64,000 bases of DNA from an uncultured Acidobacteriota bacterium (GCA_963816985.1 CAWFMF010000004.1:4503106-4567105); one strand, 5' to 3'; counted from the first letter of the stretch, positions 23,064 to 61,348 are shown. Program-made: numbers and translations. Notes: generated by a model not told the origin, from the sequence alone.

Positions 23064-23140
23064 ACAGTACCGCGAGCGGTAGCGAGCGGGTTGGCGATGA
23101 CTAAGCCAACCCGCTCGCTACCGCTCGCGGTACTGTTTTT
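23064..23140. repeat. REP-like palindromic element, family B (copy B1); probable bidirectional terminator
   Basis: cagtaccgcgagcggtagcgagcgggttggc-gatgactaa-gccaacccgctcgctaccgctcgcggtactg followed by ttttt. A 31-bp perfect stem. Confidence 0.75.
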
Positions 23141-23156
23141 AGTAGCGGTACTGCTT

Positions 23157-24563
23157 TTAGTAGATGTTGAAGTTGTATTCGAGGATGACGAACTGCGAGA
23201 CCGTCCGCCCGTCCTTCTGCGCCGGCTGGAAGCGGATGTTCCGAGCCGCCGAGATCGCCTTCTCCGTCAGACCGTCCGGCAAACCCTTCACCACCGAGAT
23301 GCTCGTCACCGCGCCCGACGAAGAGAGTACCGCCCGCAACCGGACGATGCCCGTCACGTTGTTCTTCCTCGCTTCTTCCGTGAACCCCGGCTCCGGCTTC
23401 GAGACGATCAAAGCCTTCCTCGTCACCTCGTTCTGCCGGAAGGTGCGGTCGTAGTCCACGGGCGTCCCGCCGCCTCCGCCGCCCGCTCCGCCGCCGCCCT
23501 CGTTGCGGTCGCCGCCTCCGGTGTTCCCGCCTCTGCCGGGGCCGACGCCGCCGCCGTCGCCTGAGCCGACGCCGCCGCCCGTCCCAGTCCCGATGCCTCC
23601 GCCTGTGCCGGGGCCGCTGGAGATTTCCGTGGACTTAGACTTCGGGTCGCCGAAGGGAATGGGGCGAGTGTCCGGAGGAAAGAGCGCCGGGTCGGCATCT
23701 ATCGTCGGGGCCACCGCGAGACTCGGATTCTTAATGGCCGGGGGCCGTGGGTTGGGAGGCAGAATCTGCGGCTGCAACTGCGCCGCCGGGAGCTTGCCGA
23801 AGGAGGCCGGCGTCTGCTCTTCGCGCCCGCCGCCGCCGCCGCCCTGCGCCTTCTCCTGCTTGGGCTTGGAGCCGCCGCCCGTGCCCTTCGCCATGCCCGC
23901 CGTTCCTTCGTCCGGCTTCTCCTGCTCCTTCGGGATTTCGTTTATGTCAACCATCCCGACCAGTTCGAGGTCTTCGTTGACGGCGGCCATCTGCGACGCG
24001 TTCCCGCGAAAACGGTCGAGCGCGTAGAGCGAGCCGAGCATCACGGAGACGATGAAGAAAGCGGCGAACGTGGCGAGGGCGACGTTGCGCTGCGAGAAGA
24101 ACTTCCAACCGGCGCGCGTGTAAGCAGTCGCCGAGCGTCCGGTGAATCCCAGAGGGTCTTTCTTAAATTCGGGCCACGTCAGTTGCGACTCGTGCGCCAC
24201 GGCTTGAAGCTCGCGCGTCAGGCGGCGCGTCAGCCCCTCGTCCTCGATGAAGGTCAGACTGTACTCGCCGCGCATGAAGGGGGGGAGCGTTGCGGCGGCG
24301 GCCTGTGGCCACATGTCGGGTCGGATTTCCTGTGCCATACGTTGACGGAGCCTTTCTTCGTAGCCCGGCCAGAAGTCCTCAGCCGGGAGAGTTGCCTCGG
24401 CGGCCTGCCCGAAGACTTGGAGGGTCTCGGACAGAGAGCGGAACTGCGCGCGGCAGGCGGCGCAGTGTTCCAGCTCTTCGAGCAGCGGGCCGCGCCGCGC
24501 GGCGTCCAGCTCGTCGAAGAGCAGGTCAACAAAATTCTCTCTGGTAACGTTGCAGTCGTGCAT
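23157..24563 (-). CDS. anti-sigma factor (zf-HC2-type N-terminus, one TM helix) fused to a TonB C-terminal domain
   Basis: 468 aa. Regions along the protein:
- LEHCAACRAQF zinc-finger-like motif
- TM helix VALATFAAFFIVSVMLGSLYAL
- Pro- and Gly-rich linker
- C-terminal VTGIVRLRAVLSSSGAVTSISVVKGL...RFQP, a TonB_C-like fold
Sits 20 bp downstream of the ECF sigma gene. Confidence 0.7.
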   Translation of the reverse strand: MHDCNVTRENFVDLLFDELDAARRGPLLEELEHCAACRAQFRSLSETLQVFGQAAEATLPAEDFWPGYEERLRQRMAQEIRPDMWPQAAAATLPPFMRGEYSLTFIEDEGLTRRLTRELQAVAHESQLTWPEFKKDPLGFTGRSATAYTRAGWKFFSQRNVALATFAAFFIVSVMLGSLYALDRFRGNASQMAAVNEDLELVGMVDINEIPKEQEKPDEGTAGMAKGTGGGSKPKQEKAQGGGGGGREEQTPASFGKLPAAQLQPQILPPNPRPPAIKNPSLAVAPTIDADPALFPPDTRPIPFGDPKSKSTEISSGPGTGGGIGTGTGGGVGSGDGGGVGPGRGGNTGGGDRNEGGGGAGGGGGGTPVDYDRTFRQNEVTRKALIVSKPEPGFTEEARKNNVTGIVRLRAVLSSSGAVTSISVVKGLPDGLTEKAISAARNIRFQPAQKDGRTVSQFVILEYNFNIY

Positions 24564-24582
24564 GGGACGATTCCCCGAAACC

Positions 24583-25206
24583 TTAGCGGCGCTCGGCGGC
24601 GGACAGCGGAGCGCCTTCGCCCGCGCCGACGACGCCCAGTCCGAGCGCGCCGCGCAGCTTTAGAAGCGAGCGGAACAATGATTTCTTAACGGCCCCGGTC
24701 GAGCACTCGCAGGCGACGGCGATCTCTTGATACGTCATCCCCTCGCGGTGCTTGAGCAGGAAGATGAGGCGCTGCGGCGGCGTCAACTCGCCCAGAGCCC
24801 CCATCACGCGCTCGACCATGATCTTCCGCACCAGCCCGTCCTCGGCCTCGCCGTGCGCCACGGAGGCGAAGTCGCGCGACTCCTCGTTCAGCCCGTCGAG
24901 GCTGTCGAAGCGGATGACCGTCCTCTCGTTGTCGCGCGTCGTGGTCATGGCACGTCGGTGGTTGAGAAAAGAGTTGATCGTAATCTGGCGCAGCCAGGTG
25001 TAGAACGAAGACTCTGCGCGGAAGCCCTTCAAGGATTTGAAAGCCTTCAGCCAGACCTCCTGCGAAAGGTCTTCGGCGTCGTGCGGGTCACGACAGTAGT
25101 GCATGGCGAGCGAGTAGAGGCGGCGTTCGTAATTCTTCGCGAGGAGGCAGAAGGCCTCCACGTCGCCCGCCTGCGCAAGCCCGATCAGTTGATCTTCGGT
25201 GGTCAA
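24583..25206 (-). CDS. RNA polymerase ECF-type sigma-70 factor
   Basis: 207 aa. Region 2 (AEDLSQEVWLKAF) and region 4 (MTYQEIAVACECSTGAVKKSLFRSL). Confidence 0.9.
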   Translation of the reverse strand: MTTEDQLIGLAQAGDVEAFCLLAKNYERRLYSLAMHYCRDPHDAEDLSQEVWLKAFKSLKGFRAESSFYTWLRQITINSFLNHRRAMTTTRDNERTVIRFDSLDGLNEESRDFASVAHGEAEDGLVRKIMVERVMGALGELTPPQRLIFLLKHREGMTYQEIAVACECSTGAVKKSLFRSLLKLRGALGLGVVGAGEGAPLSAAERR

Positions 25207-25310
25207 ACTCGAAAGTTCCCTTCGCGCTGGGTCGTTCCAATAGACTCAGCTTTCGGGGAATTGGTTGGCGGGGGGCCGGAGAAATTTTTCAACTGCCGGG
25301 ACTAAAAGCA

Positions 25311-25359
25311 AAAGCCGTGGGCAGGGAGAACTTAAACTCTCCCCGCCCACGGCTTTTTG
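25311..25359. terminator. bidirectional intrinsic terminator
   Basis: aaaagccgtgggcagggagaacttaaactctccccgcccacggcttttt. A GC-rich stem flanked by A- and T-runs, downstream of the DUF3352 gene. Confidence 0.6.
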
Positions 25360-25384
25360 ACTTGAGCCTTTTTGGACTCGACTA

Positions 25385-27103: not shown

Positions 27104-27175
27104 ACCACACCTCCAGTCAATGAAAACGAGCGAGGGTAAAATTTTAAGCAGCCGTGACCGACTTCAGTCTAACGA

Positions 27176-27979
27176 CTACTTCATCTCCTTCCGCGCGAAG
27201 ACGTACTGCGCGGTGAAGTAGAGACCCGTCGAGACCACCAGCATGATGAGGATGGGCACGGGGTCGAGCCGTCCGTAGAGCGAGAGGTCAATGTCGCCCT
27301 CCCCGCTGCGCGTCGCGGCGCTGATGATCATGTCGAAGAGATTCCCGCCGAAGTAGTAGAACATTCCGAGGAGCGAGACGGCCCCGGCGATGACCGCGAT
27401 CCACCACTTCTCGAAGAGCACGGAGAAGAGGAACGTCGCCGAGTAGACCATCAGGCCGATGACCATCGTCCACACCGTCCCGCGCGTCGCGTTGGCGACG
27501 ACGTTAGTAAACGCGCCCCACGAGCCTTCGAACGTCACGTGCGTCGAGCCCGCGACTATCACGCAGTAGACGAATGTCAGCGACGAAAGTATCGAGAGCC
27601 CGACGCACGTCATCGTCTGCACCGCGCCGAGCAGGTACTTGATGAGCAGGACGTGGCCGCGCCTGACGGGCCGCTCGAAGAGGAAAAAGATGCTGCGGTT
27701 GTCCAGTTCCGCCCCGACCGAGCCGACCGCGAAGAAGGCGAGCAGGAAGAGCCCCGCCGTAATCAGGAAGACCGACTGCGCGATGAGCGCGAATTCCAGA
27801 ACTTGCCCCGCAATCGCGTCGCTCATCGCCCGGAGGTCGAACTGCACGCTGTCCTCCAAAGTGATGACGAGCCCCGCGAGGAAGAGCGGGCCGTGGAAGG
27901 CCACGGCGAAGGCCAGCCACTTCCAGCGCGTCTCGCGCCATTCCTTCCAGAGCATCGCTTTAATCATCTCTCGGTTCAC
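27176..27979 (-). CDS. ABC-2 type transporter permease
   Basis: 267 aa with 6 hydrophobic helices. Overlaps the ATPase gene by 4 nt. Confidence 0.8.
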   Translation of the reverse strand: MNREMIKAMLWKEWRETRWKWLAFAVAFHGPLFLAGLVITLEDSVQFDLRAMSDAIAGQVLEFALIAQSVFLITAGLFLLAFFAVGSVGAELDNRSIFFLFERPVRRGHVLLIKYLLGAVQTMTCVGLSILSSLTFVYCVIVAGSTHVTFEGSWGAFTNVVANATRGTVWTMVIGLMVYSATFLFSVLFEKWWIAVIAGAVSLLGMFYYFGGNLFDMIISAATRSGEGDIDLSLYGRLDPVPILIMLVVSTGLYFTAQYVFARKEMK

Positions 27980-29348: not shown

Positions 29349-29367
29349 GCTCTTCCCTCACCGCCGC

Positions 29368-29391
29368 ACTGTATCAGTCAATTAATACAGT
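29368..29391. promoter_or_regulatory. candidate GntR operator palindrome
   Basis: ACTGTAT-cagtcaatta-ATACAGT. A perfect 7-bp inverted repeat 20 bp upstream of the gntR start. Confidence 0.4.
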
Positions 29392-29503
29392 AAACACAGA
29401 TACGGGGCAAGTCAAGAGAGGGTTTCAAAAAAATTTCGGAGCCAAAAAAAGGGCTGGGGCGAGGCCGGGGGGTGGAAAAGCACGCCCCAGATGGCATTTT
29501 CCA

Positions 29504-29532
29504 TTGACATTCGGGGCGGTTTGAAATAAAAT
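29504..29532 (+). promoter_or_regulatory. near-consensus sigma-70 promoter for the S1 protease gene
   Basis: TTGACA, 17 nt, TAAAAT, in a locally AT-rich stretch about 150 nt upstream of the 29687 start. Confidence 0.4.
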
Positions 29533-30805: not shown

Positions 30806-30840
30806 CCCACGCGCGCCGCGCGCATGAACATGAAAAAGGC

Positions 30841-34011: not shown

Positions 34012-34086
34012 AAAACAGTACCGCGAGCGGTAGCGAGCGGGTTGACGATAACTAAGCTCAACCCGCTCGCTACCGCTCGCGGTACG
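34012..34086. repeat. REP-like palindromic element, family B (copy B2)
   Basis: cagtaccgcgagcggtagcgagcgggttgacgataactaagctcaacccgctcgctaccgctcgcggtacg. Same arms as B1. Confidence 0.75.
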
Positions 34087-34097: not shown

Positions 34098-36790
34098 TCA
34101 GAAACTCTTGCGGAACAGATAAGAGGCTTTGATGAAGAACGTCCGCTCGTAGCGTTGGAGGCCGTCGTCGAACCTGCCGTTGAAGCGGTGGAAGCCGCTG
34201 ACGGTCACGTCGTCGTTGTAGCCGACGTAGAAGGAGGTGCCGGGGTTCGGCGTCCAACCGAGGAGGAACTGGCCGCGCGCGCGCTTCGGGAGCGTCTCGT
34301 AGTCCACCCGCGCCCGCGCGAAGAGGAAGCGCGTGAACTGGTAGGTCGAGCGCAGGGAGATGAGGTTCACGTCGAAGGCGACGCGCTCCGTGTCGTAGCG
34401 GCGCAAGCGGTTCTTCGTGTAGTCGAGCTGCACGTTCAACTCGTTCTTCGGCTGGTAGACGAACGTCGAGCGGAACTCCCAGAGGCCGCCGGGGCCGGGG
34501 TCGAGCGGCGCGCCCTGTCCGAGCAGGAGCGCGGCGGGGCTCACGCGCGGGAAGCGTCGGCCCGCACCGAAGTCGTAGTCGAGGTGGCCGTCGCGGTAGA
34601 CGAGCCGGGCCGAGAGGTTGTACTTCTTCGAAGGGCGGACGCCGCCGTAGAGGAAGTAATGATTCTTCGTCGAGGAGCGTTCGTCGTCGCCGCCGAAGAA
34701 GGTGCAGACGGGGATACGTCGCTCCTCGTCTTCGTCGGTCGAAGGGTCGTCGGGGACGAGCGGCGGAAGCGTGCCCGTCTGGTCGCACTGCGGAAGAAGA
34801 GCGGCCCTCTCCGCGCCGACGATTCCGGCGACCGTCCGAGAGTTCGCGCCGCGCGTCGCGCCGAACTCCTCCTCGAAGACGCGCTCGTAGGCGTACTCGT
34901 AGCCGCCGCCGATGTAGGAGTTGCGCTGGAAGCCGATCTCCGTGTTGAACTCGCTCTCCCAGATTTGCATCCGCCGTTGGAAGTCGTAATCAATGTGCGT
35001 GAAGTTGTGGAAGTGCTTACGGACGATCTTCGCCTTCTGGTTCGGGTCGGAGTTGTAGCCGAGGAAGACGCTGTTGAAGTTGGTGTTGGTGCGCCCGTAG
35101 AAGCCCACGTCCACGGCGTAGCCGCGCGTCTGGCCTTCGCCGTAAAGCTCGAAAGACCAGTTGCGCCCCTGACGGTAAAGCGTCGCGACGTAGCCGAGCC
35201 CGGCGCGCTGCTCGTCCACGTCGGCCCCGCGTTCGGGGTCGAAGAAGGGCGTGTGCGAGTTCGTGCCGAGCAGTTGGAAGGTGAGGGTCGTCATCTTGTC
35301 GAGGCGGAAGCGACCGTCAACCCCGGCGGTGTGATTGTAATGGTCAACGAAGTTGTAGGTCGTGGCGATGAGCCCGATGCTGTGCTCGCGCCCCACGTCG
35401 CGCTTGAGGCGCAAGACGCCGATGGTCGCGTTCTTGTCCAAGACCTTCGTCAACTGCTCGCGCCTTGATGTGGAGCCGCCCACGTCGTTGAGGAAGGCGC
35501 GGTCGTCGAAGTTGAGGTTGCCGGGGCCGTTGTCGGAGGCGAACATCACGCCGTAGGTGTTGCGTCCGCGTTTGCCTGAGAGCTTCAAGGCGAGGTCTGG
35601 GTCAACGATGGCGCGCGTGTGGACGACCGTCAGCGGCGTGTTGAAGATTTCGATGCCTTCGAGGAAGAAGGGCCGCTTCTCGGCGAAGAAGATGGGGAAG
35701 CGTTGGTTGGTGGTGACGACGAGCGAGTCGGCCTCGACCTGCGCGAAGTCGGGGTTGACGGCGAGGTCGAGCGTCATCGCCGAGGAGACGACGAGCTTCG
35801 CCGTCAGTCCGGGGTCGAGCGCGACGGGCTCGTTGACGAAGGCCCCGGCGTCCACGATGCCGCGCCCGCGCGAGGGGTCTGTGCGGACGAGTCGCCCGGT
35901 CTCCGAGACGGTCAGGCTCGGAATGAGTTCGAGCGTGCGCTCGGTCGAGATGCCTTCGAGCCCGGTGAGGCGACCGGCCTGATTCATCGTCCCCGATTCC
36001 GCGCGCGACATGGGCATCCAAGAGTCTATCTCGTCGCTGTTGCGGTCAATGTTGCGCCACGCGTGGATGCCCCAGAATTTGCCCTTGCCCGCCTCGTAGC
36101 GCAGAGACTTGAAGGGCACGGCGACCTCGACGATGTAGCCGTCGCTCGTCAGCATCCCCTTCGACTCCATCACGATGTCAACGCTGTAGTCCACGCCGCC
36201 GCTTTCGGTGTGAATCCCGTCCTGCTGCACGCCGAGCGGGTTGAAGCCGAGGACGTATGCCTTGCGCTGGTCGTTGAAGGTGTCGAGCAGGACGCGGACG
36301 TTGTCTTCGCCGAAGACGTTGTCGCGCCGCGCGACCGTGGCGCGCACCTTCGAGGGGTCGTCGAAGGCGCGGAAGGCCATGTAGAGGAACTTGCTGTCGT
36401 AGCCGATGAGGAATTCCGTGGGGGCCGTCGGCGCGATGTTGTCGCCGGGGTTGGTCTGGTAGAAGTCCTTCAAGACGGCGGCCTGCTTCCAGACCTCTTC
36501 GTCGAGCTTGCCGTCAATGACCGGCGGGGCGTCGAAGCGCGGGACGCGGACGGGCTGCGCCTTTTCGGGCGGCAGGGTCACGCCGCCCCTGACCTCTGTC
36601 TTGGGCGCGGGAGCGGCGGCGTTCGCGGGGGCGGCAGCGGTCACGGGCGCGGCGTTCGCCGGCGCGGGCGTCGGCGAGACCGAAGCGAGCTGCGCGTGGG
36701 CCGGGGCGGCGCAGGCGAGGAGACACAGAGAGCGCAGCAGCGAACGCGCTCCGGCATTGACGAGTTGTTTTTTCAAGGCGGCTCTTATCA
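34098..36790 (-). CDS. DUF5916 / carbohydrate-binding-family-9-like domain protein (secreted)
   Basis: About 900 aa with a signal peptide (LLRSLCLLACAAPAHAQ). Long beta-rich body. Start ambiguous (TTG at 36777, GTG at 36790, ATG at 36833). Confidence 0.65.
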
Positions 36791-37034
36791 CTTTGCAGCG
36801 AGGTATGGGGTCGGCCTCTCCGAACTTCACCATCGGGGTTAAGGGTTCGGAGAGGCCGACTCCTTATGAAAGGAGTATGTAATTAACATGAGCGACTGAA
36901 CGGGGAGGAAAGTTATGACTTGAATGAGCCCGAACTTCGGGCCGACTTTATGAAAGCCGACGGCCCCGGAGAAAACCAACCAGCCTTGTACGGCTCAGGC
37001 GGCGCGAAGGTTGCGAGGAATTTCGGCGAGGCGT

Positions 37035-37880: not shown

Positions 37881-38350
37881 TTTCTTAACCTGCCTGCTCT
37901 TAGGCGACCGGGTTCGTTTTCGAACGGGCTGCCGGAGTGCTCTCGGTTCGGATTTCAACGAGTAGGTGTCGCGCCCGCGTCCGAGGTTTCAACTTTTCGC
38001 GTCCGGGGCGTCCCAGCGGCCCTCGAACTGCCCTCGGCTACCTCTTTCTACTGGCAAAACACCACGTGCGCGTATTTCGTGGCAATAAATTTTTCGCTTA
38101 CAATGACGCCCGTCGCCTCGAAATTGTTAACACGCCGGAGTCGGCGGCGGCTCGAAGGCTTCCCCGTCTCGCCGTGTCGGAGGCCGAAAATGCCGACTCA
38201 CGTGCAGTTAGTGCCGACGGGTATGATTCCGTTTCAAAATAATTTAGGTTCCAAAACTTCGCGCTCCGCGCGAGGCGGCGTCGTACTTCGGCGGGCCGGG
38301 CGGGCGTGCCGGGTCAAACTTTTGAGCTGGATTTTCATGGAGGAGGGCGG

Positions 38351-39325
38351 ATGAAACATCGTCGCTTCGGGCGCACGGGCTGGTCTGTCAGCGAGATCGG
38401 CTACGGGATGTGGGGCATGGGCAGTTGGAGCGGTTCGAGCGACGAGGAGTCGCTTGGGTCGCTTCAGCACGCCGTTGACCTTGGGTGCAACTTCTTCGAC
38501 ACGGCTTGGGCTTACGGCGAGGGGCGGAGCGAAGGGCTGCTCGGACAACTCGTCCGCGCCAATCCGGGGAAGCGGCTCTACACGGCCTCGAAAATCCCGC
38601 CCAAGAATTTGAAGTGGCCGAGCCGTCGTGAGTTCACGCTCGACGAATGCTTCCCGCCCGAACACATCGAGGAGTACGTCCAACGCAGCTTACAAAACGC
38701 GGGCCTCGAAAGTTTCGACCTCATGCAGTTCCACGTCTGGGAGGACTCATGGGTCGAGGACGACCGCTGGGCGAAGAAGATGGACGAGCTTCGCCGTCAG
38801 GGCTTAATCAACGCCGTCGGCATCAGCATCAACCGCTGGGAGCCCTGGAACGGCGTCCGCACCGTGCGGAGCGGGATGATTGACGCCGTGCAGGTCATCT
38901 ACAACGTCTTCGACCAGAACCCGGAGGACGACCTTTTCCCCGCGTGCGCCGAAAAGGACGTGGCCGTCATCGCGCGCGTCCCGTTCGACGAAGGCACTCT
39001 GACCGGCACTCTCACCAAAGAGAGCACGTGGCCCGAAGGCGACTGGCGCAACACGTACTTCGTGGCGTCGAATTTGATTCCGAGCGTCGAGCGCGCCGAC
39101 GCACTCAAGCCAATCGTCTCAGACGCCGGGGTCTCCATGCCGGAGGCGGCGCTCCGCTTCATCCTCAATCACCCGTCGGTGAGCACAATCATCCCCGGCA
39201 TGCGCAAGCTCTCGCACGTCGAGTCGAACATCAAGGCGAGCGACGCCGGACCGCTCGACGACGACTTGCTCGAAGAGCTGCGCTTTCATCGTTGGGATCG
39301 CCAGCCGTCCGAGTGGTCACAGTAA
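38351..39325 (+). CDS. aldo/keto reductase
   Basis: GGAGGAGGG RBS, then MKHRRFGRTGWSVSEIGYGMWG...FDTAWAYGEG, the classic AKR pattern. Confidence 0.9.
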   Translation: MKHRRFGRTGWSVSEIGYGMWGMGSWSGSSDEESLGSLQHAVDLGCNFFDTAWAYGEGRSEGLLGQLVRANPGKRLYTASKIPPKNLKWPSRREFTLDECFPPEHIEEYVQRSLQNAGLESFDLMQFHVWEDSWVEDDRWAKKMDELRRQGLINAVGISINRWEPWNGVRTVRSGMIDAVQVIYNVFDQNPEDDLFPACAEKDVAVIARVPFDEGTLTGTLTKESTWPEGDWRNTYFVASNLIPSVERADALKPIVSDAGVSMPEAALRFILNHPSVSTIIPGMRKLSHVESNIKASDAGPLDDDLLEELRFHRWDRQPSEWSQ

Positions 39326-39402
39326 AAATCAGTACCGCGAGCGGTAACGAGCGGGTTGACGTTAGTGATGCTCAACCCGCCCGAAAGACCGCTCGCGGTT
39401 CT
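39326..39402. repeat. REP-like palindromic element, family B (copy B3, right arm degenerate)
   Basis: cagtaccgcgagcggtaacgagcgggttgacgttagtgatgctcaacccgc-ccgaaagaccgctcgcggttctg, immediately after the AKR stop. Confidence 0.65.
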
Positions 39403-39418
39403 GTTCTTCACTTGCTCC

Positions 39419-40386
39419 CTACAGGCAGGGATTCACGCCGGGGACGAGCGGGCGGACGTATGCGCCCTGCAACTCGGCGGCGGTGTAAGGCAGCAGGCGG
39501 TTGGTGACGAGTGTGTCCACGCGGAATCCGTCGGGGACGTTGACGAAGCTGTACGCGCCCGACACGACCATCGGGTTGAACTGCGAGAGTGCGAAGCCCG
39601 CGGGCTTCGGGTTGGGCTCGACCGTCGTGTCGAGCCCGAATCCGGGGGCCGCGAGGAAGTCGTCGAAGGTGAGCGCGCCCGATGCGGGGACGACCTTCGA
39701 CGTGACGAGGCTCAACTCGCCCGCGTTCCGCAGGTTGGTCGGGCCGAAGGCCGCCTCGCTCCCGGCGTTGCCTGCGCCGTCGAGGATGCGGTCGTAGCGT
39801 TGTGTCCAGAGGTAGTCGAGGACGCCGCCGGTCGTCGGCTCGACGAGCCGCGTGGGGACGATGCGGACGACCGGGAGTGCGAGCACCAGCGCGTCTTCGG
39901 GTGGGTCGGCGAGGTCGTTGCCGATGAGGTCGAAGGTCTGCCGGTCGTAGTAGAAGACGCCGAGGTTCGCATTGACCGCGATGAGCCAGAACTGATAGGC
40001 GGCGTCCGTGACGGTCTCCGGGTAGGCGGGCGTGAAGGGGTTCGTCGGGTTCGTGCCGGGGACGCGTTGGACGGTCGGGCGGTACGGCAGGTTCTCGTAG
40101 TGGAACCTGAGCGTCACCTTGTTGGCCGACTTGTTCCACTTCACTTCGGCGAAGGCGTTGCGCGTCTCGCGCGCGAAGTCCACGACCATGTCGCCGGGGG
40201 GCGGGCCGAAGCCGGGGACGAAGGGCAGGCGAAGCTCGCCGTGGGTGTTGGCCGGAGCGGCGGTCGCGCCGAGCGCCGGAGAGCCGCCCGCGAGCGGCAG
40301 CGCCGCGAGAGCGCCAGCCGAGAGCGCGGCGGTCTTGAGGAAGTTCGCGTCGGGGTGAGGGTTGGGGTTTCCGCACGTGTTCGTTC
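39419..40386 (-). CDS. hypothetical Tat-exported protein (apparent frameshift inside the signal peptide)
   Basis: ATG at 40386 gives MNEHVRKPQPSPRR. The next frame gives NFLKTAALSAGALAALPLAGGSPALGA...MVVDFARET..., the body of the 39419..40189 ORF. Together they form a canonical twin-arginine signal, S-P-R-R-N-F-L-K. Confidence 0.5.
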
Positions 40387-45335: not shown

Positions 45336-47420
45336 ATGAACGCCCGCACTCGCCGCTCTCTGCTCCCGCACATGCTCGCCCTCGTCCTCTGCCTCTGCGG
45401 CGCAGCCCCTTTGCGCAACGGGCAGGCGCAAAAGAACACAGGGAAGTCTTACCGCCCGGACATCCGCCGCGCCCTCAAGTCTCGACAGAAGAGCGCGAAC
45501 TTCCCCGCCCGCTCCGGCTCATACGCGCCGCGACGTGCGCGCAAGTCACCGGCCCGGCTCGCGCGCACGTCGCGCCCGGCCACGAGTGACGCGCGGCAAA
45601 GGCCGACCGCCCGTCCCGCGATTGTGCGCCGCGACGCTGCGAAACGAATCGAGCGCAAAGCCGAAGCCGCCGCCCTCCCGAACATCACGCCGGGCACGCC
45701 GCTCAGCCGCGTCTTGCACACCTCGCAACTGAGCCTCGTCAGCTCCGCCGGTACTCACGAGCAGTTCGTTGACGTGGACGGCGACCTCCTCGCCGACCAG
45801 CGCACGACGTTCGACTCCGACGGCGGCTCCTTCGACATCGCCGTCGGGCGCACGGGCGACCGCTACGAAGTCTTCACGGCGATTGACGACCGTGGGACGG
45901 GGACAATCAACGACGACGTTTCGACGGGCATCCTCGTCCTCGCGCGCGACTCTAACGGCAACTACCAGCGCGACCTCTCGGCCACCTTCGACCTCGGCAG
46001 GGACTTCGGCTTCCCCTCGGCGGTCTCGGTCGTCTCCGGCACCTCGGCGACGGGCCGCGAGTTCGTCGTCGTCTCCTCCAGCGGCTTCTTCAACAGCGAC
46101 GACCCCGACGACCCGAACAACGAAGAGTCGCCCGGCGTCGTCCTCCTCGTCCGCGACCCCTCGACCGGCGGCTTCGACGACTCGCGCACGCGCGAACTCA
46201 TCAGCGTCGGCGACGACCGCATCTTCAACGCCAACGCTCTCGCGCTCCTCCCGTCCGGCGACCTCGTCATCGCCGACTTCCAGTCGAACGAGCTGCGCGT
46301 CGTCCACGACACCAACGGCGACCGCATCCCCGACGTGCTCTCGCCCGACCCCTACTGGGACTTCCCCTTCTCCGCCAACGCCGAGGACGCGCCGCTCGAC
46401 ATCGCCTCGAACTCGCGCGGCGTCGTCTTCACGCACACCGTCGGCAACGACACGCAGATGCTCGCCGTCTACGACGACAACGCCGACGGCTTCGCCGACA
46501 CCGACGAGATACGCGCCGAGGGACTCTCGATAGACAACAACCTCGTCCTCCACGGCCTGACCGTGGGCCGCGACGGCACGGTCTACATCATCGAAGACGC
46601 GACGGGCGAGAGCGACCTGCCAGCCGACGGCGGCAACGGCGGTATCCCGCGCATTGACGCCTTCCCCGACCCGGCCTTGAACGGCGTGCTGCGCGACGGC
46701 GCGATCTTCGAGTTCGCCGACGACGAATTCACGCAGGCGCTCTCCGGCCTCTCCTTCGGCGTCGAAACCGTCCTCAACCCGGTCGCGCATCTTTCGATGA
46801 CCAACAGCGCGAGCCAGCAGGGCGACGCGCCGCGAGGCGGACTGGCGACCATCAAAGGCACGGGCCTCACGCGCGGCGCGACGGGCGCAACTCGCGCCGA
46901 AGCGATTGCTCAAGGCGTCGCCGTCACCATCGAAGGCTTCAACGTCCCCGTCCTCTCCTTCGACGACACGCGGATACACATTCAGGTTCCGCAGGAGTTG
47001 GGCGCGGGCGTCGGCTCGGTCATCGTCAACGTGCAGGGCAACATCATCGCCGCCGACGACGCCTTCATCGTCCAGGCCAATCCCGGCGTCTTCACCGTCC
47101 CGCAGACCGGCGCGGGCGAAGCGGTCGCGCTCCTCGCCTCCGGCATGAGCTACACGCAAGCGCCCTTCCCCGCGCGGACGAACAACCAGCCCTCCGTCGT
47201 CTCGCTCCTCGGCACAGGCTGGCGCAACTCTCTGCCCGTCACCGTGAAGATCGGCGGGCAGAACGCCGCCGTCCAGTACGCCGGAGTCGCGGGCGGCTTC
47301 GAAGGGCTCGAACAGATAAACGTCGAGATACCGAACGGCGTGAACGGCGCGGCCACCGTCGTCGTCACCACCGCCTCCGGCGCGACGAGCCGGGGCGACG
47401 TTTTCATCACCGTCCAATGA
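45336..47420 (+). CDS. large secreted protein with C-terminal Solibacter-type uncharacterised domain (TIGR03437-like)
   Basis: Signal peptide. The C-terminal two tandem segments (NPGVFTVPQTGAGEAVALLASG...GGQNAAVQYAGVAGGFEGLEQINVEIPNGV) resemble the TIGR03437 family, which is abundant in Acidobacteria. Confidence 0.6.
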   Translation: MNARTRRSLLPHMLALVLCLCGAAPLRNGQAQKNTGKSYRPDIRRALKSRQKSANFPARSGSYAPRRARKSPARLARTSRPATSDARQRPTARPAIVRRDAAKRIERKAEAAALPNITPGTPLSRVLHTSQLSLVSSAGTHEQFVDVDGDLLADQRTTFDSDGGSFDIAVGRTGDRYEVFTAIDDRGTGTINDDVSTGILVLARDSNGNYQRDLSATFDLGRDFGFPSAVSVVSGTSATGREFVVVSSSGFFNSDDPDDPNNEESPGVVLLVRDPSTGGFDDSRTRELISVGDDRIFNANALALLPSGDLVIADFQSNELRVVHDTNGDRIPDVLSPDPYWDFPFSANAEDAPLDIASNSRGVVFTHTVGNDTQMLAVYDDNADGFADTDEIRAEGLSIDNNLVLHGLTVGRDGTVYIIEDATGESDLPADGGNGGIPRIDAFPDPALNGVLRDGAIFEFADDEFTQALSGLSFGVETVLNPVAHLSMTNSASQQGDAPRGGLATIKGTGLTRGATGATRAEAIAQGVAVTIEGFNVPVLSFDDTRIHIQVPQELGAGVGSVIVNVQGNIIAADDAFIVQANPGVFTVPQTGAGEAVALLASGMSYTQAPFPARTNNQPSVVSLLGTGWRNSLPVTVKIGGQNAAVQYAGVAGGFEGLEQINVEIPNGVNGAATVVVTTASGATSRGDVFITVQ

Positions 47421-47430: not shown

Positions 47431-47540
47431 GTCAGAACCGCGAGCGGTAGCGAGCGGGTGACGATTGACGTTAAGACTCACCCATGAGAGGCGCGTGTCT
47501 GCATAGTTGAGACCCGCCCGCTACCGCAGGCGGTTCTGAC
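47431..47540. repeat. REP-like palindromic element, long subtype D (copy D1)
   Basis: Arms gtcagaaccgcgagcggtagcgagcgggtg / gacccgcccgctaccgcaggcggttctgac around a roughly 50-nt insert containing gttaagac. The core accgcgagcggtagcgagcgggt is shared with family B. Confidence 0.7.
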
Positions 47541-47587: not shown

Positions 47588-48709
47588 ATGGAGCTTCAAG
47601 ACCTCAAGACCCCTTCTCTCATCCTCGACGCCACCCGCGTCCGCAGCAACGCCGAGAGGATGTCCGCGCGCGTGCGAGAGTTCGGCGCGGACTTGCGCCC
47701 GCACGTCAAGACGCACAAGTGTGTGGAAGTCGCGCGCCTTCAGACCGAAGGGCACGGCGGCGGCATCACCGTCTCGACGCTCGCCGAAGCGCGCGCCTTC
47801 GCCGCCGAGGGTTTTCGGGACATCACCTACGCCGTCCCCGTCGAGCCCGGCAAGTTCGGCGAAGCAGTAGAACTCGCACGGACGTGCGACCGCTTCGCCC
47901 TCATCACCGACGACGAAAGCATCCCCGGCCCGCTCAATGATGCGGCGCGACGCGGCGGCGTGACCCTCGATGTCTTCCTCAAAGTTGACTGCGGCTATCA
48001 CCGCTGCGGCGTCGAGCCGAACCTGCCCGAAGCGAGAAGCATCCCCCGCCTCATTCAAGACTCGCCTTCGTTGCGCTTCGCCGGAATCCTCACGCACGCG
48101 GGCCACTCGTACCACGCGCGCTCGCGCGAAGAGCTGCTCGCCCTCGCCCGTCACGAGCGCGACTTGATGACCGGCTTCGCCGCCGACCTCCGCGCCGAAG
48201 GCGTCGAAGTCCCCGTTGTGAGCATCGGCTCGACGCCGACCATCACGCACGTTGACCACCTCGAAGGCGTGGACGAAGTGCGCCCCGGCAACTACATCTT
48301 CTTCGACGCCTTTCAGGCCACGCTCGGCAGTTGCGGCTTCGACGACTGCGCTCTGACCGTCCTCACGTCAGTCGTCCACCGCGACCGCACGCGCCGCAAA
48401 ATCGTCCTCGACGCGGGGGCCGTCGCGCTCTCGAAAGACCGTGGTGCGATTGAGTTCGACGAGAGTTGCGGCTACGGTCGCGTCCTCGACCTCGAAGGCC
48501 GGGACACGGGCCTCCGTGTCGAGTCTCTCTCACAAGAACACGGCGCGGTGCTCGTCCCCGACGAAAAGCTCTTCGACTCGCTGCGCGTCGGCACGCGCGT
48601 CCGCGTGCTCGCCAATCACTCGTGCCTCACGGCGGCGCAGCACTCTCATTATCACGTCCTCGAAGGCGAGCGCGTCGTTGACCGTTGGAAGATACACGGC
48701 GGGTGGTGA
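47588..48709 (+). CDS. alanine racemase N-terminal-domain (D-TA / D-serine deaminase-like) PLP enzyme
   Basis: 373 aa. PSLILD...HVKTHKC (PLP lysine) and FLKVDCGYHRCG, typical of the DSD1/low-specificity D-threonine aldolase family. Confidence 0.8.
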   Translation: MELQDLKTPSLILDATRVRSNAERMSARVREFGADLRPHVKTHKCVEVARLQTEGHGGGITVSTLAEARAFAAEGFRDITYAVPVEPGKFGEAVELARTCDRFALITDDESIPGPLNDAARRGGVTLDVFLKVDCGYHRCGVEPNLPEARSIPRLIQDSPSLRFAGILTHAGHSYHARSREELLALARHERDLMTGFAADLRAEGVEVPVVSIGSTPTITHVDHLEGVDEVRPGNYIFFDAFQATLGSCGFDDCALTVLTSVVHRDRTRRKIVLDAGAVALSKDRGAIEFDESCGYGRVLDLEGRDTGLRVESLSQEHGAVLVPDEKLFDSLRVGTRVRVLANHSCLTAAQHSHYHVLEGERVVDRWKIHGGW

Positions 48710-53119: not shown

Positions 53120-53395
53120 GCGCACGGACTTGGCAGCTTCATGTCCTGCCCTGAAAGGGCAGAAGATAATAGCCGGGGGCAAGCAAACGTAGTTTGCGCC
53201 GCCCCCGGTTGCCCGCAGGTTTATGACTCCGACCCTGAAGGGGTCGCGGCTCAACGTTGAGGTGCGACCCCTTCAGGGTCGGAATTCTTTCTCTGCTGGT
53301 TCCGGGGGCGGCGCTCAGTCGCTGACGCTCCTTCACTCTGCCCCCGGCTATTGTCTGAATCCCCTTCGGGGATATTTGATGAATGCTTTACGCCC
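53120..53395. repeat. composite palindromic hairpin-cluster element (copy A2)
   Basis: Hairpins ctgccctgaaagggcag and atagccggggg...cccccggctat (terminal IR, positions about 53175 and 53345). Central palindrome ccgaccctgaaggggtcgcggctcaacgttgaggtgcgaccccttcagggtcgg, and atccccttcggggat. Same CCCC-NNNN-GGGG architecture and caacgttga core as A1. Sits at a convergent junction. Confidence 0.6.
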
Positions 53396-53399: not shown

Positions 53400-55565
<2,166 letters not shown>

Positions 55566-55573
55566 CCTTTCCC

Positions 55574-57502: not shown

Positions 57503-57544
57503 TAACTTCCCTTCGTTACTCAACGTCAAAGATGCGCGAAAGAA

Positions 57545-57637
57545 TTGTAGGGGCAGGGCTTGTCCCTGCCCGCAGCCTCCGCTGAATTAATGTCGAGTGT
57601 GCCGCGTCCGCGGGCAGGGACAAGCCCTGCCCCTACA
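57545..57637. repeat. long palindromic repeat, family C (copy C2)
   Basis: tgtaggggcagggcttgtccctgcccg-(39-nt loop)-cgggcagggacaagccctgcccctaca. Identical arms to C1. Lies between the treY stop and the treZ start. Confidence 0.7.
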
Positions 57638-57653
57638 GTTTTACCAGCAGTCT

Positions 57654-60596
57654 TCATTCATCACCCACGCGTTCGAGCAGCGCCACAGGCATCCGTTCGA
57701 GGACTCTGGCAATCGGCAGCGAGGCCGCTTCGTTTGCCCCGACGATAAATTCCGCGCCGGTGAAAACGTCGCGGTAAAGACCGCCGCCCGCCCCTTCGGG
57801 CAACATCAGCGCCGTGTCGCGCCACGTGTCCGCGCCGACCCAGCCGTTGATCGAGCGCGCGATGCCGTGGCGCGTGAAGAAGCGCGAGGCGACGACCAGG
57901 ACTTCTTCCGCGCCGCGTCTCCGCGCGAAGGCGATGACGTGATTCTCGCGCCCGCCCGTCGCGCGCAGGGGCACGTACTCGCCCTGCTCGAACAACTCGC
58001 GTCGCGCCTTGCGGAAGTTGAGCGCGCGCGTCGTGACGTAGAGCTTGATGCGACCGTCTTCGGGTTGGAGGATGAGTTTTTCGACCAACCCTGCGTCGCC
58101 GCCTTCTTCCTTGAGCGAGGCGAGCAGAGACTTGCGCAGCTCGTAGTCAACGGGGCGGCGGTTGTCCGGGTCAACGAGCGCAAAACTCCAAAGCTCCGTG
58201 CCCTGATAAAAGTCGGGCACGCCGGGCGCGGCGATCTTCAGCAGCGTCTGCGAGAGCGAGTTGAGGAGGCCCGCGCGCGTCGTCGTCTTCTGGAACTCGT
58301 TGAAGTCTTCGACGAACGGGTTGTCTTCGCCGGGCTCAAGAATCGCGCCGACGAACTCGCGGACGGCGCGCTCGTAGGCCTCGTTCTGGCTGATCCAGCT
58401 CGTGTGGAGCTTCGCTTCCTTGAGCGCCTTGTTCATGTACTCCTGAATGCGCCCGATGTACTCGCGCCGCGCGTCTCCGTCCAACGGCGTGAGCGGCCAC
58501 GTCCCGACGAGCGTTTGATAGAGCAGGTATTCCTCGTTGGCGTCGGGAACCTCCGCGCCTTCGAGCTGCGCCTTGCGCGGGCGGTTCATCTCGCGCCAGC
58601 GGTGGAGCGCGCGGTTCCACTCTTCGGGGATTTCGGAAAGGACGTTGATGCGCGCGCGCACGTCCTCGCTGCGCTTGCTGTCGTGCGTCGAGGTGGTCGA
58701 GAGCGAGTGCGGCCAAGTCTCTTGCCGGTCGCGGTTGCGCTCGTGGAAACGCTCGACGGGGATGCCGATGATGGCGGGCTCGCCGCCGACTTCGTTGAGA
58801 GACGCGAGCGGGTAGAAGCGATAGAAGGCCGTGTCTTCGAGCCCCTTCGCCGTCACGGGGCTCGTCAACTGCTGGAAGCGCAGCACGAAGTCGCGCCGCT
58901 CGGCGCGCTGCTCGCGCGTCACGCCTTTGGGGTCTTGGAGCAGAAGCAGCGACGCGATGAAGTCGAAGACGGAAGGGTCGGTCGCCGGGTTGCGCCGCTT
59001 GGCCAAGCGGACGGCGGTGTTGATGTGGAGGCGGTCGTCGGGGCTCACGCCCGTCTGTCGCGGGCGGATGTAGCTGCGGTAGACGGGGAAGCATGCGATC
59101 ACTTCGCCGAGGGCTTGCTGGAGGCTGTTCAAAGTGAAGTCGCGCGACCAGCGGTGCTGCTCGGCGATGCGCCCCAGACGGCGCGCGAGGACGTGCAGCT
59201 CGCTCGACATCACGACGCGCAGGACGAGCTTCTTGCAGCCGTAGAGGAGGTCGTCGAACTTCACTTCGAGGCCGGTGAAGTCCCTGTACAGCTCGCGCAT
59301 CGCGGGCGCGTTCGCGTGGTCAACGAAGACGCCGTTGAGGAGGTTGGCGAACTCATACCCGGTCGTCCCGTAGACGGGCCACTCGCGGCGCAGAAGCTCG
59401 TCGTGGCCGAGAATCTTTTCCACCACGACGTAGCACGGAGGACTCTGGGGAGCGCCGCTTTCGTCAACAACCTTCGCGCCGTCGCCCCCGGCGGGCGTGC
59501 GGCGGTTGGAGCCGAGCGCCGCCGCGCACTCGCGGCTGAGGTCTTGGAGATACTTCTCAGGGTCGTGCAGCCCGTCCACGTGGTCAACGCGGAGGCCCGT
59601 CACCAAGCCCTGCTTCATCAGACGGAAGACGACTTCGTGGACGGCCTGGAAGACCGTGCGTTCTTCGACGCGGACGGCGGCCAGCTCGTTGATGTCGAAG
59701 AAGCGCCGGTAGTTGATCTCGTCGGCGGCGACGCGCCAGAAGCTCAGGCGGTAAGCCTGCTGGCCGAGCAACTCTTCCAGGTAGTCGAAGCTCTGCTCGC
59801 GCCCCTTCGCGCCGTTGATTTTAATCAGCGCGTCGTGGACTGAGCCGCGCACTCCGCCGCTCTCCTTGACGAGCGTCGAGAGCCGTCGCTTGACGACTTC
59901 CTTCTCGCGCCGGCGTTCGCGGACGAGCGCGGGCTCCGTGTCGGTGCGCGGCGGCAAGTGCCTGAGCGCGGTGATGATGCTTTCGAGTTCGAGCACGTCC
60001 GGGTGCGACTCTCCGAGGCGCGCGCGCGCGACTTCGAGCGCGAGCGAGAGGACGAGCGTCGAGGTGCGCGGCGCGATGGGCAGAGAGCTTTCGTAGTAGT
60101 TGGCGAAGAACGCGCCGCCGCGGTACGAAATTTTAATCTCCTGATTGTCTAAGACGCGCCCGAACTGGTCGCCGAGGATGGGGAGCAGGACGCGGTTCGT
60201 GAGGTTCGGGTTGGGCGGGTTCCAGTCCACGTCGAAGAAGCGCGCGTAGGGCGAGCCCGGCCCGTTCTCTAAGAGGTCGAGCCACCAGCGGTTCTCCGAA
60301 CCGGCGATGCACATGTGGTTCGGCACCACGTCCATCAGCACCGACATCCCGCGCTCGTGCAAGGCGCGTGCGAACTCGGCGAACTGCTCTTCGGTTCCGA
60401 CCTCCGGGTTGATGAGCGTGTGGTCAACGATGTCGTAGCCGTGGACGCTGCCCGGTCGCGCCTTCAGAATCGGCGAGGAGTAGCAGTCGCCGACGCCGAG
60501 TTCGGAGAGGTACTCGACGAGCGCCGCGGCCTGCCCGAAGGTGAAGTGCCGGTTGAACTGGAGCCGGTAGGTGGAGAGAGGTATGCGCGCCTGCAC
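57654..60596 (-). CDS. treY: malto-oligosyltrehalose synthase
   Basis: 980 aa. TYRLQFN...GYDIVDH and the GH13 TreY architecture. GTG start. Confidence 0.95.
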   Translation of the reverse strand: MQARIPLSTYRLQFNRHFTFGQAAALVEYLSELGVGDCYSSPILKARPGSVHGYDIVDHTLINPEVGTEEQFAEFARALHERGMSVLMDVVPNHMCIAGSENRWWLDLLENGPGSPYARFFDVDWNPPNPNLTNRVLLPILGDQFGRVLDNQEIKISYRGGAFFANYYESSLPIAPRTSTLVLSLALEVARARLGESHPDVLELESIITALRHLPPRTDTEPALVRERRREKEVVKRRLSTLVKESGGVRGSVHDALIKINGAKGREQSFDYLEELLGQQAYRLSFWRVAADEINYRRFFDINELAAVRVEERTVFQAVHEVVFRLMKQGLVTGLRVDHVDGLHDPEKYLQDLSRECAAALGSNRRTPAGGDGAKVVDESGAPQSPPCYVVVEKILGHDELLRREWPVYGTTGYEFANLLNGVFVDHANAPAMRELYRDFTGLEVKFDDLLYGCKKLVLRVVMSSELHVLARRLGRIAEQHRWSRDFTLNSLQQALGEVIACFPVYRSYIRPRQTGVSPDDRLHINTAVRLAKRRNPATDPSVFDFIASLLLLQDPKGVTREQRAERRDFVLRFQQLTSPVTAKGLEDTAFYRFYPLASLNEVGGEPAIIGIPVERFHERNRDRQETWPHSLSTTSTHDSKRSEDVRARINVLSEIPEEWNRALHRWREMNRPRKAQLEGAEVPDANEEYLLYQTLVGTWPLTPLDGDARREYIGRIQEYMNKALKEAKLHTSWISQNEAYERAVREFVGAILEPGEDNPFVEDFNEFQKTTTRAGLLNSLSQTLLKIAAPGVPDFYQGTELWSFALVDPDNRRPVDYELRKSLLASLKEEGGDAGLVEKLILQPEDGRIKLYVTTRALNFRKARRELFEQGEYVPLRATGGRENHVIAFARRRGAEEVLVVASRFFTRHGIARSINGWVGADTWRDTALMLPEGAGGGLYRDVFTGAEFIVGANEAASLPIARVLERMPVALLERVGDE

Positions 60597-60992
60597 TTCT
60601 GTTCGTTCCCCGTCTGAAAAAGTCGCCGGTCGGGCTGCACGCCTTCGCGCCCGACTCCGAAGCGCCCGTCCTCAACCTGCGTCGAGTGCAGGAGCCGTAA
60701 AGGCTTTCCACTGTTGTCCGCGATGCCCTCTATCTTCACACTTCCGAGCCCGAAACGCCACGACGCGCAGAGCACTGCGGACACACCTTTCGCCGGACTG
60801 GAACGAAGGATAAAAGACTCTGTGTTGCGGGTGTGACGCCGATTTTATCGGACGGGTGGGTGACGGTCTGTTCGCTCCCGTACTCACGACGGACGCCCCC
60901 GATATCCTTCGCAGACTCCTCTTTTTGTTTTAAACTTCCGGCCTCAAGGGTTTCTTGCGGCCTACACATTTAAACCGAGGAGGAGCACGGAA

Positions 60993-61229
60993 ATGATTGA
61001 CAGCGACAGAGACGACGACGCGGCCAGTGGCGACAGCGTGAGCGAAGGCGGCGGCACGGGCTCGGAAGGCGTTGACAGCATCACGCCGCAGGCCGAAGTG
61101 TCGGGCGACGACCCCGCCGGTTTTGAAGTGAGCGACCCCGGCGAAGAAGACGGCGGCTCGGAATCCGAGGGCGGCGTCGGCGACTGGGACCCGGCGAGCG
61201 CGGGCGGCGGAGGCGGCGAAGTTTACTGA
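60993..61229 (+). CDS. small acidic Asp/Glu/Gly-rich hypothetical protein
   Basis: 78 aa preceded by GAGGAGGAGCACGGAA ATG. Composition is Asp/Glu/Gly/Ser-dominated (low complexity), so coding status is uncertain. Confidence 0.35.
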   Translation: MIDSDRDDDAASGDSVSEGGGTGSEGVDSITPQAEVSGDDPAGFEVSDPGEEDGGSESEGGVGDWDPASAGGGGGEVY

Positions 61230-61236
61230 GTCTTAA

Positions 61237-61348
61237 GTCAGAACCGCCTGCGGTAGCGGGCGGGTCTTGGTAATGTTAAGACTGACCCACGATGGTATGT
61301 GAGCGTCGGCGACGTTAAGACCCGCCCGCTACCGCAGGCGGTTCTGAC
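61237..61348. repeat. REP-like palindromic element, long subtype D (copy D2)
   Basis: Perfect arms gtcagaaccgcctgcggtagcgggcgggtc / gacccgcccgctaccgcaggcggttctgac around an insert with gttaagac at both ends. Lies between the convergent acidic ORF and the TBDR stop. Confidence 0.75.

Follow-up and report, generated by a model that had tools for sequence, protein, structure and literature searches.

What are the long palindromes that stand behind genes at five places in a 64,000-nt stretch of DNA from an uncultured Acidobacteriota bacterium (GCA_963816985.1 CAWFMF010000004.1:4503106-4567105; this whole stretch is hereafter the window)? In a preliminary description, a short type (copies B1, B2 and B3) and a long type (D1 and D2) were told apart, and both were assigned to one family resembling the repetitive extragenic palindromes (REPs), possibly targeted by a REP-associated tyrosine transposase (RAYT). 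The source of the window is a Pyrinomonadaceae genome: the aminotransferase encoded at 21804-23021 shares 94%, 92%, 87% and 82% identity with proteins from Pyrinomonadaceae metagenome-assembled genomes (MAGs) or metagenomes, with conserved gene order. We are confident that the palindromes are inverted, REPIN-like doublets of a REP-type hairpin of single-stranded DNA (ssDNA), the recognition element of a Y1 HUH transposase of about 170 amino acids (AAs) that is class-3 TnpA-Y1/RAYT-like. The doublets of the window are most likely the gene-less form of the element; in relatives the gene sits between two inverted units, which would be the autonomous form.

A search of the window for the core 23-mer ACCGCGAGCGGTAGCGAGCGGGT with up to 3 mismatches returned 9 arms, all of them in palindromes at the five places, against 0 expected from 100 dinucleotide-preserving shuffles of the window. 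A covariance model of the arm, run over the 64 kb without filters, found exactly 10 arms, that is, five doublets, and nothing else credible. With 10 arms found and none expected by chance, the five copies do form a real repeat family, as first proposed. The core also recurs far outside the window. A species-level scan (one genome per species, two variants of the core allowed) gave more than 114 stretches from at least 56 assemblies. The exact core is present in no fewer than 56 species-level assemblies, 54 of which are labelled Acidobacteriota, mostly Pyrinomonadaceae/Blastocatellia. This recurrence is at odds with the former label of a lineage-specific family, and the presence of the same arms in more than 100 independent assemblies rules out an assembly artefact. 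All allele, doublet and site counts across genomes given below are counts among the matches listed by the species-level scan.

The unit of the family is the individual arm, not the long palindrome. It is 29 nt long and reads 5'-(GT or AA)CAGW-A, an 8-bp stem closed by a GNNA loop, and a final GT, each arm folding on itself (CCGCCTGC-GGTA-GCGGGCGG). The 5' foot has an invariant C-A-G, with W and then one A behind it (roughly half of the copies have CAGA, the others CAGT), and the loop is GGTA, GTAA, GTCA or GTGA. Only two arm alleles are dominant across genomes: A2 (ACCGCCTGCGGTAGCGGGCGGGT, the D type of the window; 126 arms), with GT before the foot, and A1 (ACCGCGAGCGGTAGCGAGCGGGT, the B type; 53 arms), with mostly AA. 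The two middle pairs, at arm positions 6/17 and 7/16, are a tandem G.A/A.G in A1 and become C-G/T.G in A2. A third allele has a compensated swap at arm positions 5-18 (C5-G18 to G-C); this change was seen in one groundwater genome, in which left and right arms differ systematically, each keeping its own hairpin (L036, L039, L062, L111). Variant arms in L119 carry G4-C19 to A-T and C3-G20 to G-C. GTAG, tried as a REP foot, was rejected, as it sits across the boundary of loop and stem (GGTA/G) and is lost in the variants with GTAA, GTCA and GTGA loops.

Covariation was measured in 42 distinct arms from transposase flanks, chosen purely by their position beside the transposase genes introduced below. 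In the 8-bp helix 88% of the cells pair, compared with 28-51% in slid controls (partner shifted by 1-3 columns); double-sided changes affect 4/8 pairs, and double-change cells number 35 vs 11 ± 4 in shuffles (0/500). Because the covariation lies within each arm, the arm is a hairpin under structural constraint. The compensatory changes noted earlier are real within one arm (positions 6/17 and 7/16) and do not extend to pairing between arms, D1 being uncompensated. The REP-like nature of the family is borne out as well, with one conserved small hairpin per arm, a fixed 5' foot, extragenic position and inverted doublets.

The enzyme was recognized in L026, where a 171-AA open reading frame (ORF; 3751-4266) is enclosed by one + arm and two - arms. 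Its product matches Pfam Y1_Tnp above the cut-off (24.7 vs 23 bits) and, weakly, the NCBIfam IS200 model. There are 3273 homologues at E <= 1e-5, the best of them from Acidobacteria, Blastocatellia and Pyrinomonadaceae, and many of them bear the JGI name 'REP element-mobilizing transposase RayT'. In 6/6 distinct loci first examined (L012, L026, L115, L117, L119, L120) the gene is bracketed by inverted arms; in four genomic contexts beyond L026 and L012 the layout is GTCAGW-arm ... arm'-WCTGAC, ~18 nt ahead of the ATG and 10-50 nt past the stop, and one transposase locus is bracketed by complete doublets on both sides. A metagenome scan for transposase loci gave 80 further loci, 67 of them with at least 150 nt on both sides. 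The anchor GTC[AG]GWA is inverted on both sides at 61/67 of these and present on at least one side at 65/67; a hairpin built in the same way stands behind it in nearly every case.

Transposase proteins clustered at 70% identity each carry, cluster by cluster, their own arm type: cluster 15 carries A2, cluster 14 carries CCG[ACG]GAGC...GCGACCGG, which is nearest to A1, and other clusters carry CCACC..., CCATC... with GTAA loops, and further types. This is the co-variation expected of cognate enzyme-repeat partners. The transposase genes of L026, L115, L117 and L120 stand between arms identical to those of D2 in the window. The proposal that the palindromes are targets of a REP-associated tyrosine transposase is therefore well founded, since in related Pyrinomonadaceae/Blastocatellia genomes and in soil metagenomes a Y1 HUH gene is bracketed by the same inverted arms and transposase clades track arm types. 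The transposase of L012, 62% identical to the L026 protein, has an array of eight direct arms on one side and three inverted arms on the other (1210-2320, period about 55/111 nt). This locus belongs to a MAG labelled Acidimicrobiia and is on a contig of 635 kb; a single A1 arm (L079, 311-333) was seen inside a long ORF on a contig with 69% GC that carries the label Clostridia. Both occurrences could be due to mis-binning, horizontal transfer or chance.

The transposases are 169-171 AAs long and have a nearly invariant N-terminus (MWNDTDIPLAYLITFRxYGTWLHGDERGS). N94-H95-x-H97 and Tyr156 are invariant in alignments of 26 and 65 homologues, and the tyrosine motif is Y156-V-I-N-[G/E]-Q (D-Y-V-I-N-G-Q), its fifth residue being usually G, not E. 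Class 3 of the TnpA-Y1 enzymes has been described as ~178 AAs long, with NHVH, YV[VI][AENY]EQ and a conserved N-terminal extension, hosted by Planctomycetes, Acidobacteria and Proteobacteria, its genes having flanking hairpins whose 5' foot is CnGA and of which Solibacter usitatus has about 600 copies (Quentin et al. 2018, BMC Genomics 19:475, PMC6006769). Judged by motifs, length and foot, the present enzyme and its repeat fit this published description. An AlphaFold (AF2) model of the transposase has a pLDDT of 81.4, and in a Foldseek search ranks 1-30 are all Y1 transposases (IS200, ISDra2, IS608 TnpA, a Sulfolobus transposase and TnpA-REP, 4er8), with E-values of 6e-5 to 2e-3 and target-normalised TM-scores of 0.5-0.68.

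Several observations weigh against this identification. The unit lacks the canonical REP foot GT[AG]G, and the L026 protein reaches only 23.2 bits with the NCBIfam model REP_Tyr_transpos (NF047646), of which the cut-off is 80. A sequence profile search of the PDB with the transposase alignment gave no match at E <= 1, and tblastn of the transposase against the 64-kb window found no gene. Among the loci examined, no transposase is flanked by the exact A1 arm with an AACAG foot; the arms nearest to A1, those of cluster 14, depart from it at arm position 18, and their foot is GTCAG. We infer that the transposase is present in the window's own genome.

The five doublets of the window are preserved to different degrees. 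B1 (allele A1; 23062-23138) has its left unit at 23063-23091 (+) and its right unit at 23109-23137 (-), which form a 34-bp perfect stem with a 9-nt loop; the feet read AACAGT...ACTGTT, followed by TTTTT, and the RNA fold is -78.6 kcal/mol (z -14.9). It occupies the convergent junction of the aminotransferase gene 21804-23021 (+) and a TonB_C gene 23157-24563 (-). An 18-nt tandem duplication (CGGTACTGTTTTTAGTAG followed by CGGTACTGCTTTTAGTAG, 23127-23162) covers the end of the right arm, the T-run and the TonB_C stop codon, and may have arisen by slippage at the insertion junction. B2 (allele A1; palindrome 34018-34085, left unit 34014-34042 (+), right unit 34061-34085 (-)) has a 28-bp perfect stem, a 12-nt loop and an RNA fold of -62.4 kcal/mol; the outer foot of its right unit is degenerate and its spacer is homologous to that of B1. 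It lies between co-directional genes, 12 nt past the stop of a DUF5916/CBM9 gene (34098-36833 (-)). B3 (39328-39405; left unit 39328-39356 (+), right unit 39375-39405 (-)) is a decaying A1 copy directly after the stop of an aldo/keto reductase gene (38306-39325 (+)), convergent with 39419-40189 (-). Its left unit has one substitution (GGTAACG), the hairpin of its right unit is broken (CTCGCTAC to CCCGAAAGA), and the covariance-model scores are 34.5 (left) and 11.6 bits (right).

D1 (47431-47540) is a chimera. Its left unit (47431-47459 (+)) is an A1-type stem on an A2-type GTCAGA foot, its right unit (47512-47540 (-)) is A2, and the 29-nt arms, 90% complementary with 3 uncompensated mismatches, enclose a 52-nt spacer. 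The doublet stands 10 nt past the stop of 45336-47420 (+) and 47 nt ahead of the start of the co-directional 47588-48709 (+). D2 (allele A2; 61237-61348) consists of units at 61237-61265 (+) and 61320-61348 (-), with a 32-bp perfect stem, a 48-nt spacer and an RNA fold of -86.6 kcal/mol; counted from unit to unit, the spacers of the two D copies are 52 and 54 nt long. An outer-membrane barrel gene on the - strand ends at 61358, and D2 follows its stop codon after 9 nt; this junction is convergent only if a 78-AA ORF (60993-61229) is real. The spacers of D1 and D2 share GTTAAGACTSACCCA and are homologous to each other, as are the B spacers. The long spacers (47460-47511 and 61266-61319) also share a TGACT-containing motif (GTTAAGACTSACCCAYGA), and a spacer motif of this kind (TTGACTCATG...TAATAC) recurs in L115 (2925-2961) in a doublet just upstream of the transposase gene; it might be promoter-like. 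The genes beside the five copies are ordinary ones (aminotransferase, TonB_C, CBM9/DUF5916, aldo/keto reductase, TIG-domain, alanine-racemase-like and outer-membrane barrel), named by Pfam; genes in the window and in the loci were called with a purpose-built, crude codon-bias caller, and these calls are rough. The barrel gene (Pfam OMP_b-brl_4, - strand) is apparently split into an 820-AA ORF (61537-63999) and, in a different frame, a 54-AA ORF (61358-61522) with the typical C-terminal ...VELQVRFAF, which could reflect a frameshift, a pseudogene or a sequencing error.

These measurements correct the preliminary description in several details. The B stems, given there as 29-31 bp, are 28 bp (B2) and 34 bp (B1), and the core does not occur in both arms of every copy: D2 lacks the exact core, each of its arms being 3 mismatches away. 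The D-type variant (CCTGC / GGGCGG) is found in both arms of D2 as stated, and only in the right arm of D1, the left one being B-type; likewise the insert is bounded by gttaagac on both sides in D2, and in D1 the second copy is gttgagac. The one-arm decay reported for B3 is confirmed by the disrupted hairpin of the right arm, with 1 mismatch in the left arm too. As for the three convergent junctions, B1 and B3 are certain and D2 is doubtful, depending as it does on the 78-AA ORF.

Among the listed matches there are 53 inverted doublets with the feet pointing outward. The two arms of a doublet carry the same allele, and their foot bases W are complementary, in 51/52 doublets; the doublet therefore propagates as a unit. 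The exception, D1 of the window, is the sole heteroallelic doublet among the 52 examined. Among the matches listed, A1 and A2 occur together in just one assembly besides that of the window, and the chimeric D1 suggests recombination or conversion between two co-resident populations, one of A1 and one of A2. Spacer lengths cluster at 11-18 and 33-39 nt, and the short spacers of different genomes share a loose CAAYGTTGAG motif. Recurrent asymmetric variants of the right arm, ...CCCG-GCTTAA-GCAGGCGGT and ...GCT-TGCG-GCAGGCGGT (L008, L023, L083, L112; L009, L030, L093), are met in different genomes; in them the loop region of the right unit is exchanged, which would give an internal loop in the long hairpin, and they may be distinct sub-families. 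Several of the arm matches are situated at the end of a contig or near it (e.g. L014, L025, L034, L035), and the family explains the conspicuous repeats that break MAG assemblies of soil Acidobacteria.

Are the doublets mobile? At the aminotransferase/TonB_C junction, B1 is absent from the four closest relatives (L203, L201, L202 and the P0124 contig). The orthologous junction bears an ordinary terminator-like hairpin in the 94% and 92% relatives and a different hairpin in the 82% relative, and in the 87% relative the gap between the genes is only 5 nt. B1 was therefore gained specifically in this lineage, where a terminator normally sits, and the empty orthologous sites fit its insertion. The 4 nt outside the two feet match directly at 0-1 positions in 39/52 doublets, the chance level, so no target-site duplication is seen, as expected for Y1 enzymes.

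The terminator-like hairpin found in relatives at the B1 site also speaks for an alternative, in which the elements exist primarily because the host selects them as bidirectional intrinsic terminators or as stabilisers of mRNA 3' ends, the long perfect RNA hairpin is what is selected, and the link to the transposase is incidental. The placement of the copies agrees with it in part. As first described, every copy in the window follows a stop codon (5/5, within 0-40 nt), and family-wide the median distance is 26 nt to the nearest stop vs 84 nt to the next start. The 129 sites, in 115 sequences, comprise 58 between co-directional genes, 20 at convergent junctions, 11 at divergent junctions, 19 overlapping a called ORF (mostly one with an over-long start) and 21 at the edge of a locus; 89/129 are clearly intergenic on these rough gene calls. 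Placement is thus 3'-biased, with convergent junctions somewhat enriched and divergent ones somewhat depleted. The confinement to 3' gene ends, which is true of the window, does not extend to the family, 11/89 classifiable sites being divergent, on the promoter side, which speaks against this alternative.

The RNA itself could serve such a function. The elements fold at -49 to -87 kcal/mol (z -8.5 to -15), and the A1 copies are followed by T-runs (CTGTTTTT, CTGTTTTA, CTGATTTTT), namely TTTTT on the + strand at B1, TTTT on the - strand at B2 and TTTTT on the - strand at B3. Because the RNA hairpins are very stable and the A1 T-runs are on the relevant strand, a secondary role as a terminator or 3'-end stabiliser is plausible. 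As the primary explanation we hold this improbable. If an RNA hairpin were the object of selection, pairing would be kept, but not one and the same 23-nt sequence in at least 56 species. What the covariation supports is the small hairpin of the individual arm, for which a long terminator stem has no need. In the groundwater genome left and right arms are systematically different, yet both retain their own hairpins; D1 and D2 have no T-runs; and a transposase gene is enclosed by the elements. Any terminator activity more likely came about as a by-product or through later co-option.

A second alternative accepts the transposase and changes its status: the arms would be the ends of a selfish, multi-copy insertion sequence (IS) of the IS200/IS605 type, and the doublets internally deleted derivatives, similar to palindrome-associated transposable elements (PATEs) or miniature inverted-repeat transposable elements (MITEs), rather than parts of a domesticated, single-copy RAYT-REPIN system. 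The structural matches lean this way, IS200, ISDra2 and IS608 TnpA coming slightly ahead of TnpA-REP among the PDB folds, and the Y----Q tyrosine motif is of the IS200 type (PMC6006769). The transposase genes stand in different neighbourhoods in different genomes, and Quentin et al. liken class 3, of which S. usitatus has three copies, to both IS and REPtrons (PMC6006769). In the present element, however, the two ends are symmetric inverted copies of one hairpin and a tnpB gene is lacking; in IS200/IS605 elements the left hairpin is distinct from the right one and both are on one strand. Clusters of 90% protein identity are each seen on only 1-3 contigs, gene-less doublets are apparently far more numerous than the gene, and at some loci (L012, L115) arm arrays or doublets stand on each side in the manner of a REPtron. 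We therefore regard an IS as a very unlikely source of the doublets.

Three further candidates are dismissed: MITEs of a DDE transposon, since there is no target-site duplication and the linked gene is Y1, not DDE; integron attC sites, since the stems are perfect, without extrahelical bases, cassette arrays or other than ordinary housekeeping neighbours; and, for the direct arms of L012, a CRISPR-like array, since the 'spacers' repeat with the unit at a period of 111 and the array flanks a transposase gene.

We thus return to the REPIN-like doublet and its Y1 partner, for which we propose a mechanism modelled on IS200/IS605 TnpA and Escherichia coli TnpA-REP (PMC3333891, PMC3479197, PMC6006769). 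The enzyme would bind the small hairpin where DNA is single-stranded, for example at replication forks, and use the adjoining foot to position cleavage. The doublet would then be excised and re-inserted without target duplication, and gene-less doublets would be moved or copied in trans, presumably also in the genome of the window. Copies would hence pile up in tolerant places, mostly just downstream of stop codons. On transcripts the doublet would form a very stable hairpin of 28-34 bp, and the A1 copies with a T-run would probably act as terminators or 3'-end stabilisers.

A wider proposal is possible, though we make it tentatively and think it on the whole doubtful: class-3 Y1 enzyme and doublets may have been inherited vertically across a bacterial family, the doublets also taking over native terminators and so constituting an exchangeable, mobile terminator module. 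The 23-mer identical in at least 56 species, the clade-specific arm types and the two co-resident populations betrayed by the chimeric D1 fit a vertical partnership. Doublets may land preferentially at native terminator hairpins, and their spacers can enclose hairpins with arms of tandem repeats, of a peculiar kind that elsewhere in these genomes occurs by itself behind genes. Intergenic hairpins with arms of short tandem repeats (CAGTTTT, GTTCAAG/GTTCAAA, GAACGCT/GAAGTCA, GAGGGAT, GCAAAAG) occur in the window at 7168-7246, 13939-14023 and 16209-16349. The one at 16218-16333 is conserved at the orthologous site of L201, and in L202 a hairpin of the GTTCAAG type stands one intergenic region farther along than in the window. 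In at least nine loci (L009, L023, L028, L030, L037, L054, L089, L098, L099) such hairpins are nested in the spacers of REP doublets.

The window holds other repeats. A second REP family, of canonical form, is represented by doublets of GTAGGGGCAGGGCTTGTCCCTGCCC at 15157-15230 and 57543-57640, in which a GC hairpin comes after a GTAG foot; the window has 4 exact arms where 0 are expected, and L007 and L011 contain the unit too. Its class-2 RAYT partner is presumably encoded elsewhere. Four related hairpins at 3221-3433, (GT)AGCCCCTGNAAGGGGC followed by GAAAGA in alternating orientation, resemble an array of a third REP family of the kind known as bacterial interspersed mosaic elements (BIMEs), and a separate palindrome surrounds GACCCTGAAGGGGTCG at 53203-53308. 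Rfam, searched over the whole window at gathering thresholds, gave no family at any palindrome copy, and a scan of the window for tRNA and tmRNA found none. The only Rfam match in the window, a borderline one to the SAM_alpha riboswitch (36.9 vs 36 bits), was obtained at 20993-21067 (-), upstream of a metH-like gene (17344-20946). The intergenic sequence around it is well conserved in L201 and L202, so that a real S-adenosylmethionine (SAM)-responsive leader outside Alphaproteobacteria is possible, judging by this conservation. Compared with all the loci by megablast and dc-megablast, the window showed no overlap; the sole match was a stretch at 67% identity.

To our knowledge, REP/REPIN-RAYT systems have been studied almost only in Proteobacteria, and the class 3 Y1 enzymes are known to us from about two dozen described sequences and from no biochemistry. 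In the published literature we found no paper on the present repeats in Blastocatellia/Pyrinomonadaceae. The family offers a clean, strongly structured substrate (CAGW-A foot, 8-bp stem, GNNA loop), thousands of natural variants of the enzyme in the 3273 homologues, and many matched pairs of enzyme and hairpin as raw material for learning how a Y1 HUH enzyme reads hairpin and foot.

Class 3 TnpA-Y1 is among the closest known systems. Common to it and the present family are a length of ~170-178 AAs, extended N-terminal conservation, NH[AVI]H and Y----Q (here YVIN[GE]Q), acidobacterial hosts, non-GTAG flanking hairpins with the foot CnGA (here CAGA/CAGT), and dispersed copies. The present hosts, Blastocatellia/Pyrinomonadaceae, were outside the study of Quentin et al.; the present hairpin is strong and regular (8 bp, GNNA loop) whereas the published ones are 'weak/atypical', and perfect doublets, two co-resident alleles and clade-by-clade co-variation do not figure in their description. 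With the REPIN-RAYT systems of Pseudomonas fluorescens SBW25 and its relatives (Bertels & Rainey 2011, PMC3116915) the elements share the composition of two inverted REP units that make one long hairpin and replicate as a unit, a spacer less conserved than the arms, the extragenic position, the Y1 gene flanked by the same units, and co-evolution; they differ in the foot (CAGW, not GT[AG]G), in the class of the enzyme (3, not 2) and in an exact arm common to dozens of species rather than to one species group.

The E. coli REP/BIME sequences with TnpA-REP (Ton-Hoang et al. 2012, PMC3333891; Messing et al. 2012, PMC3479197, PDB 4er8) have the HUH-Y1 fold, predicted here, and a substrate composed of a small hairpin and an adjacent guide or foot on ssDNA, which we infer for our enzyme; their repeats too lie after genes, with known side effects on termination and mRNA stability. 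The identity in structural alignment is ~10%, and foot and hairpin differ. IS200/IS605 elements (IS608, ISDra2) and PATEs give the best structural matches and resemble our system in ssDNA hairpin ends, lack of target duplication and Y----Q; theirs are asymmetric ends on one strand, often a tnpB and multiple autonomous copies, in contrast to the symmetric inverted ends and the predominance of gene-less doublets seen here. The TIRYT or 'TIRtron' group (Di Nocera et al. 2013, PMC3733652) also comprises sharply defined acidobacterial tyrosine transposases with non-GTAG inverted-repeat flanks and repeat families in some species, but it was described in Acidobacteriia only (Koribacter, Terriglobus, Acidobacterium, Granulicella), with one moderate repeat family, and the hairpin nature of the unit was not established there. 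The kind of system to which the palindromes belong is thus already known and calls for no new category; here it appears as an unusually clean and widespread example in a little-studied family.

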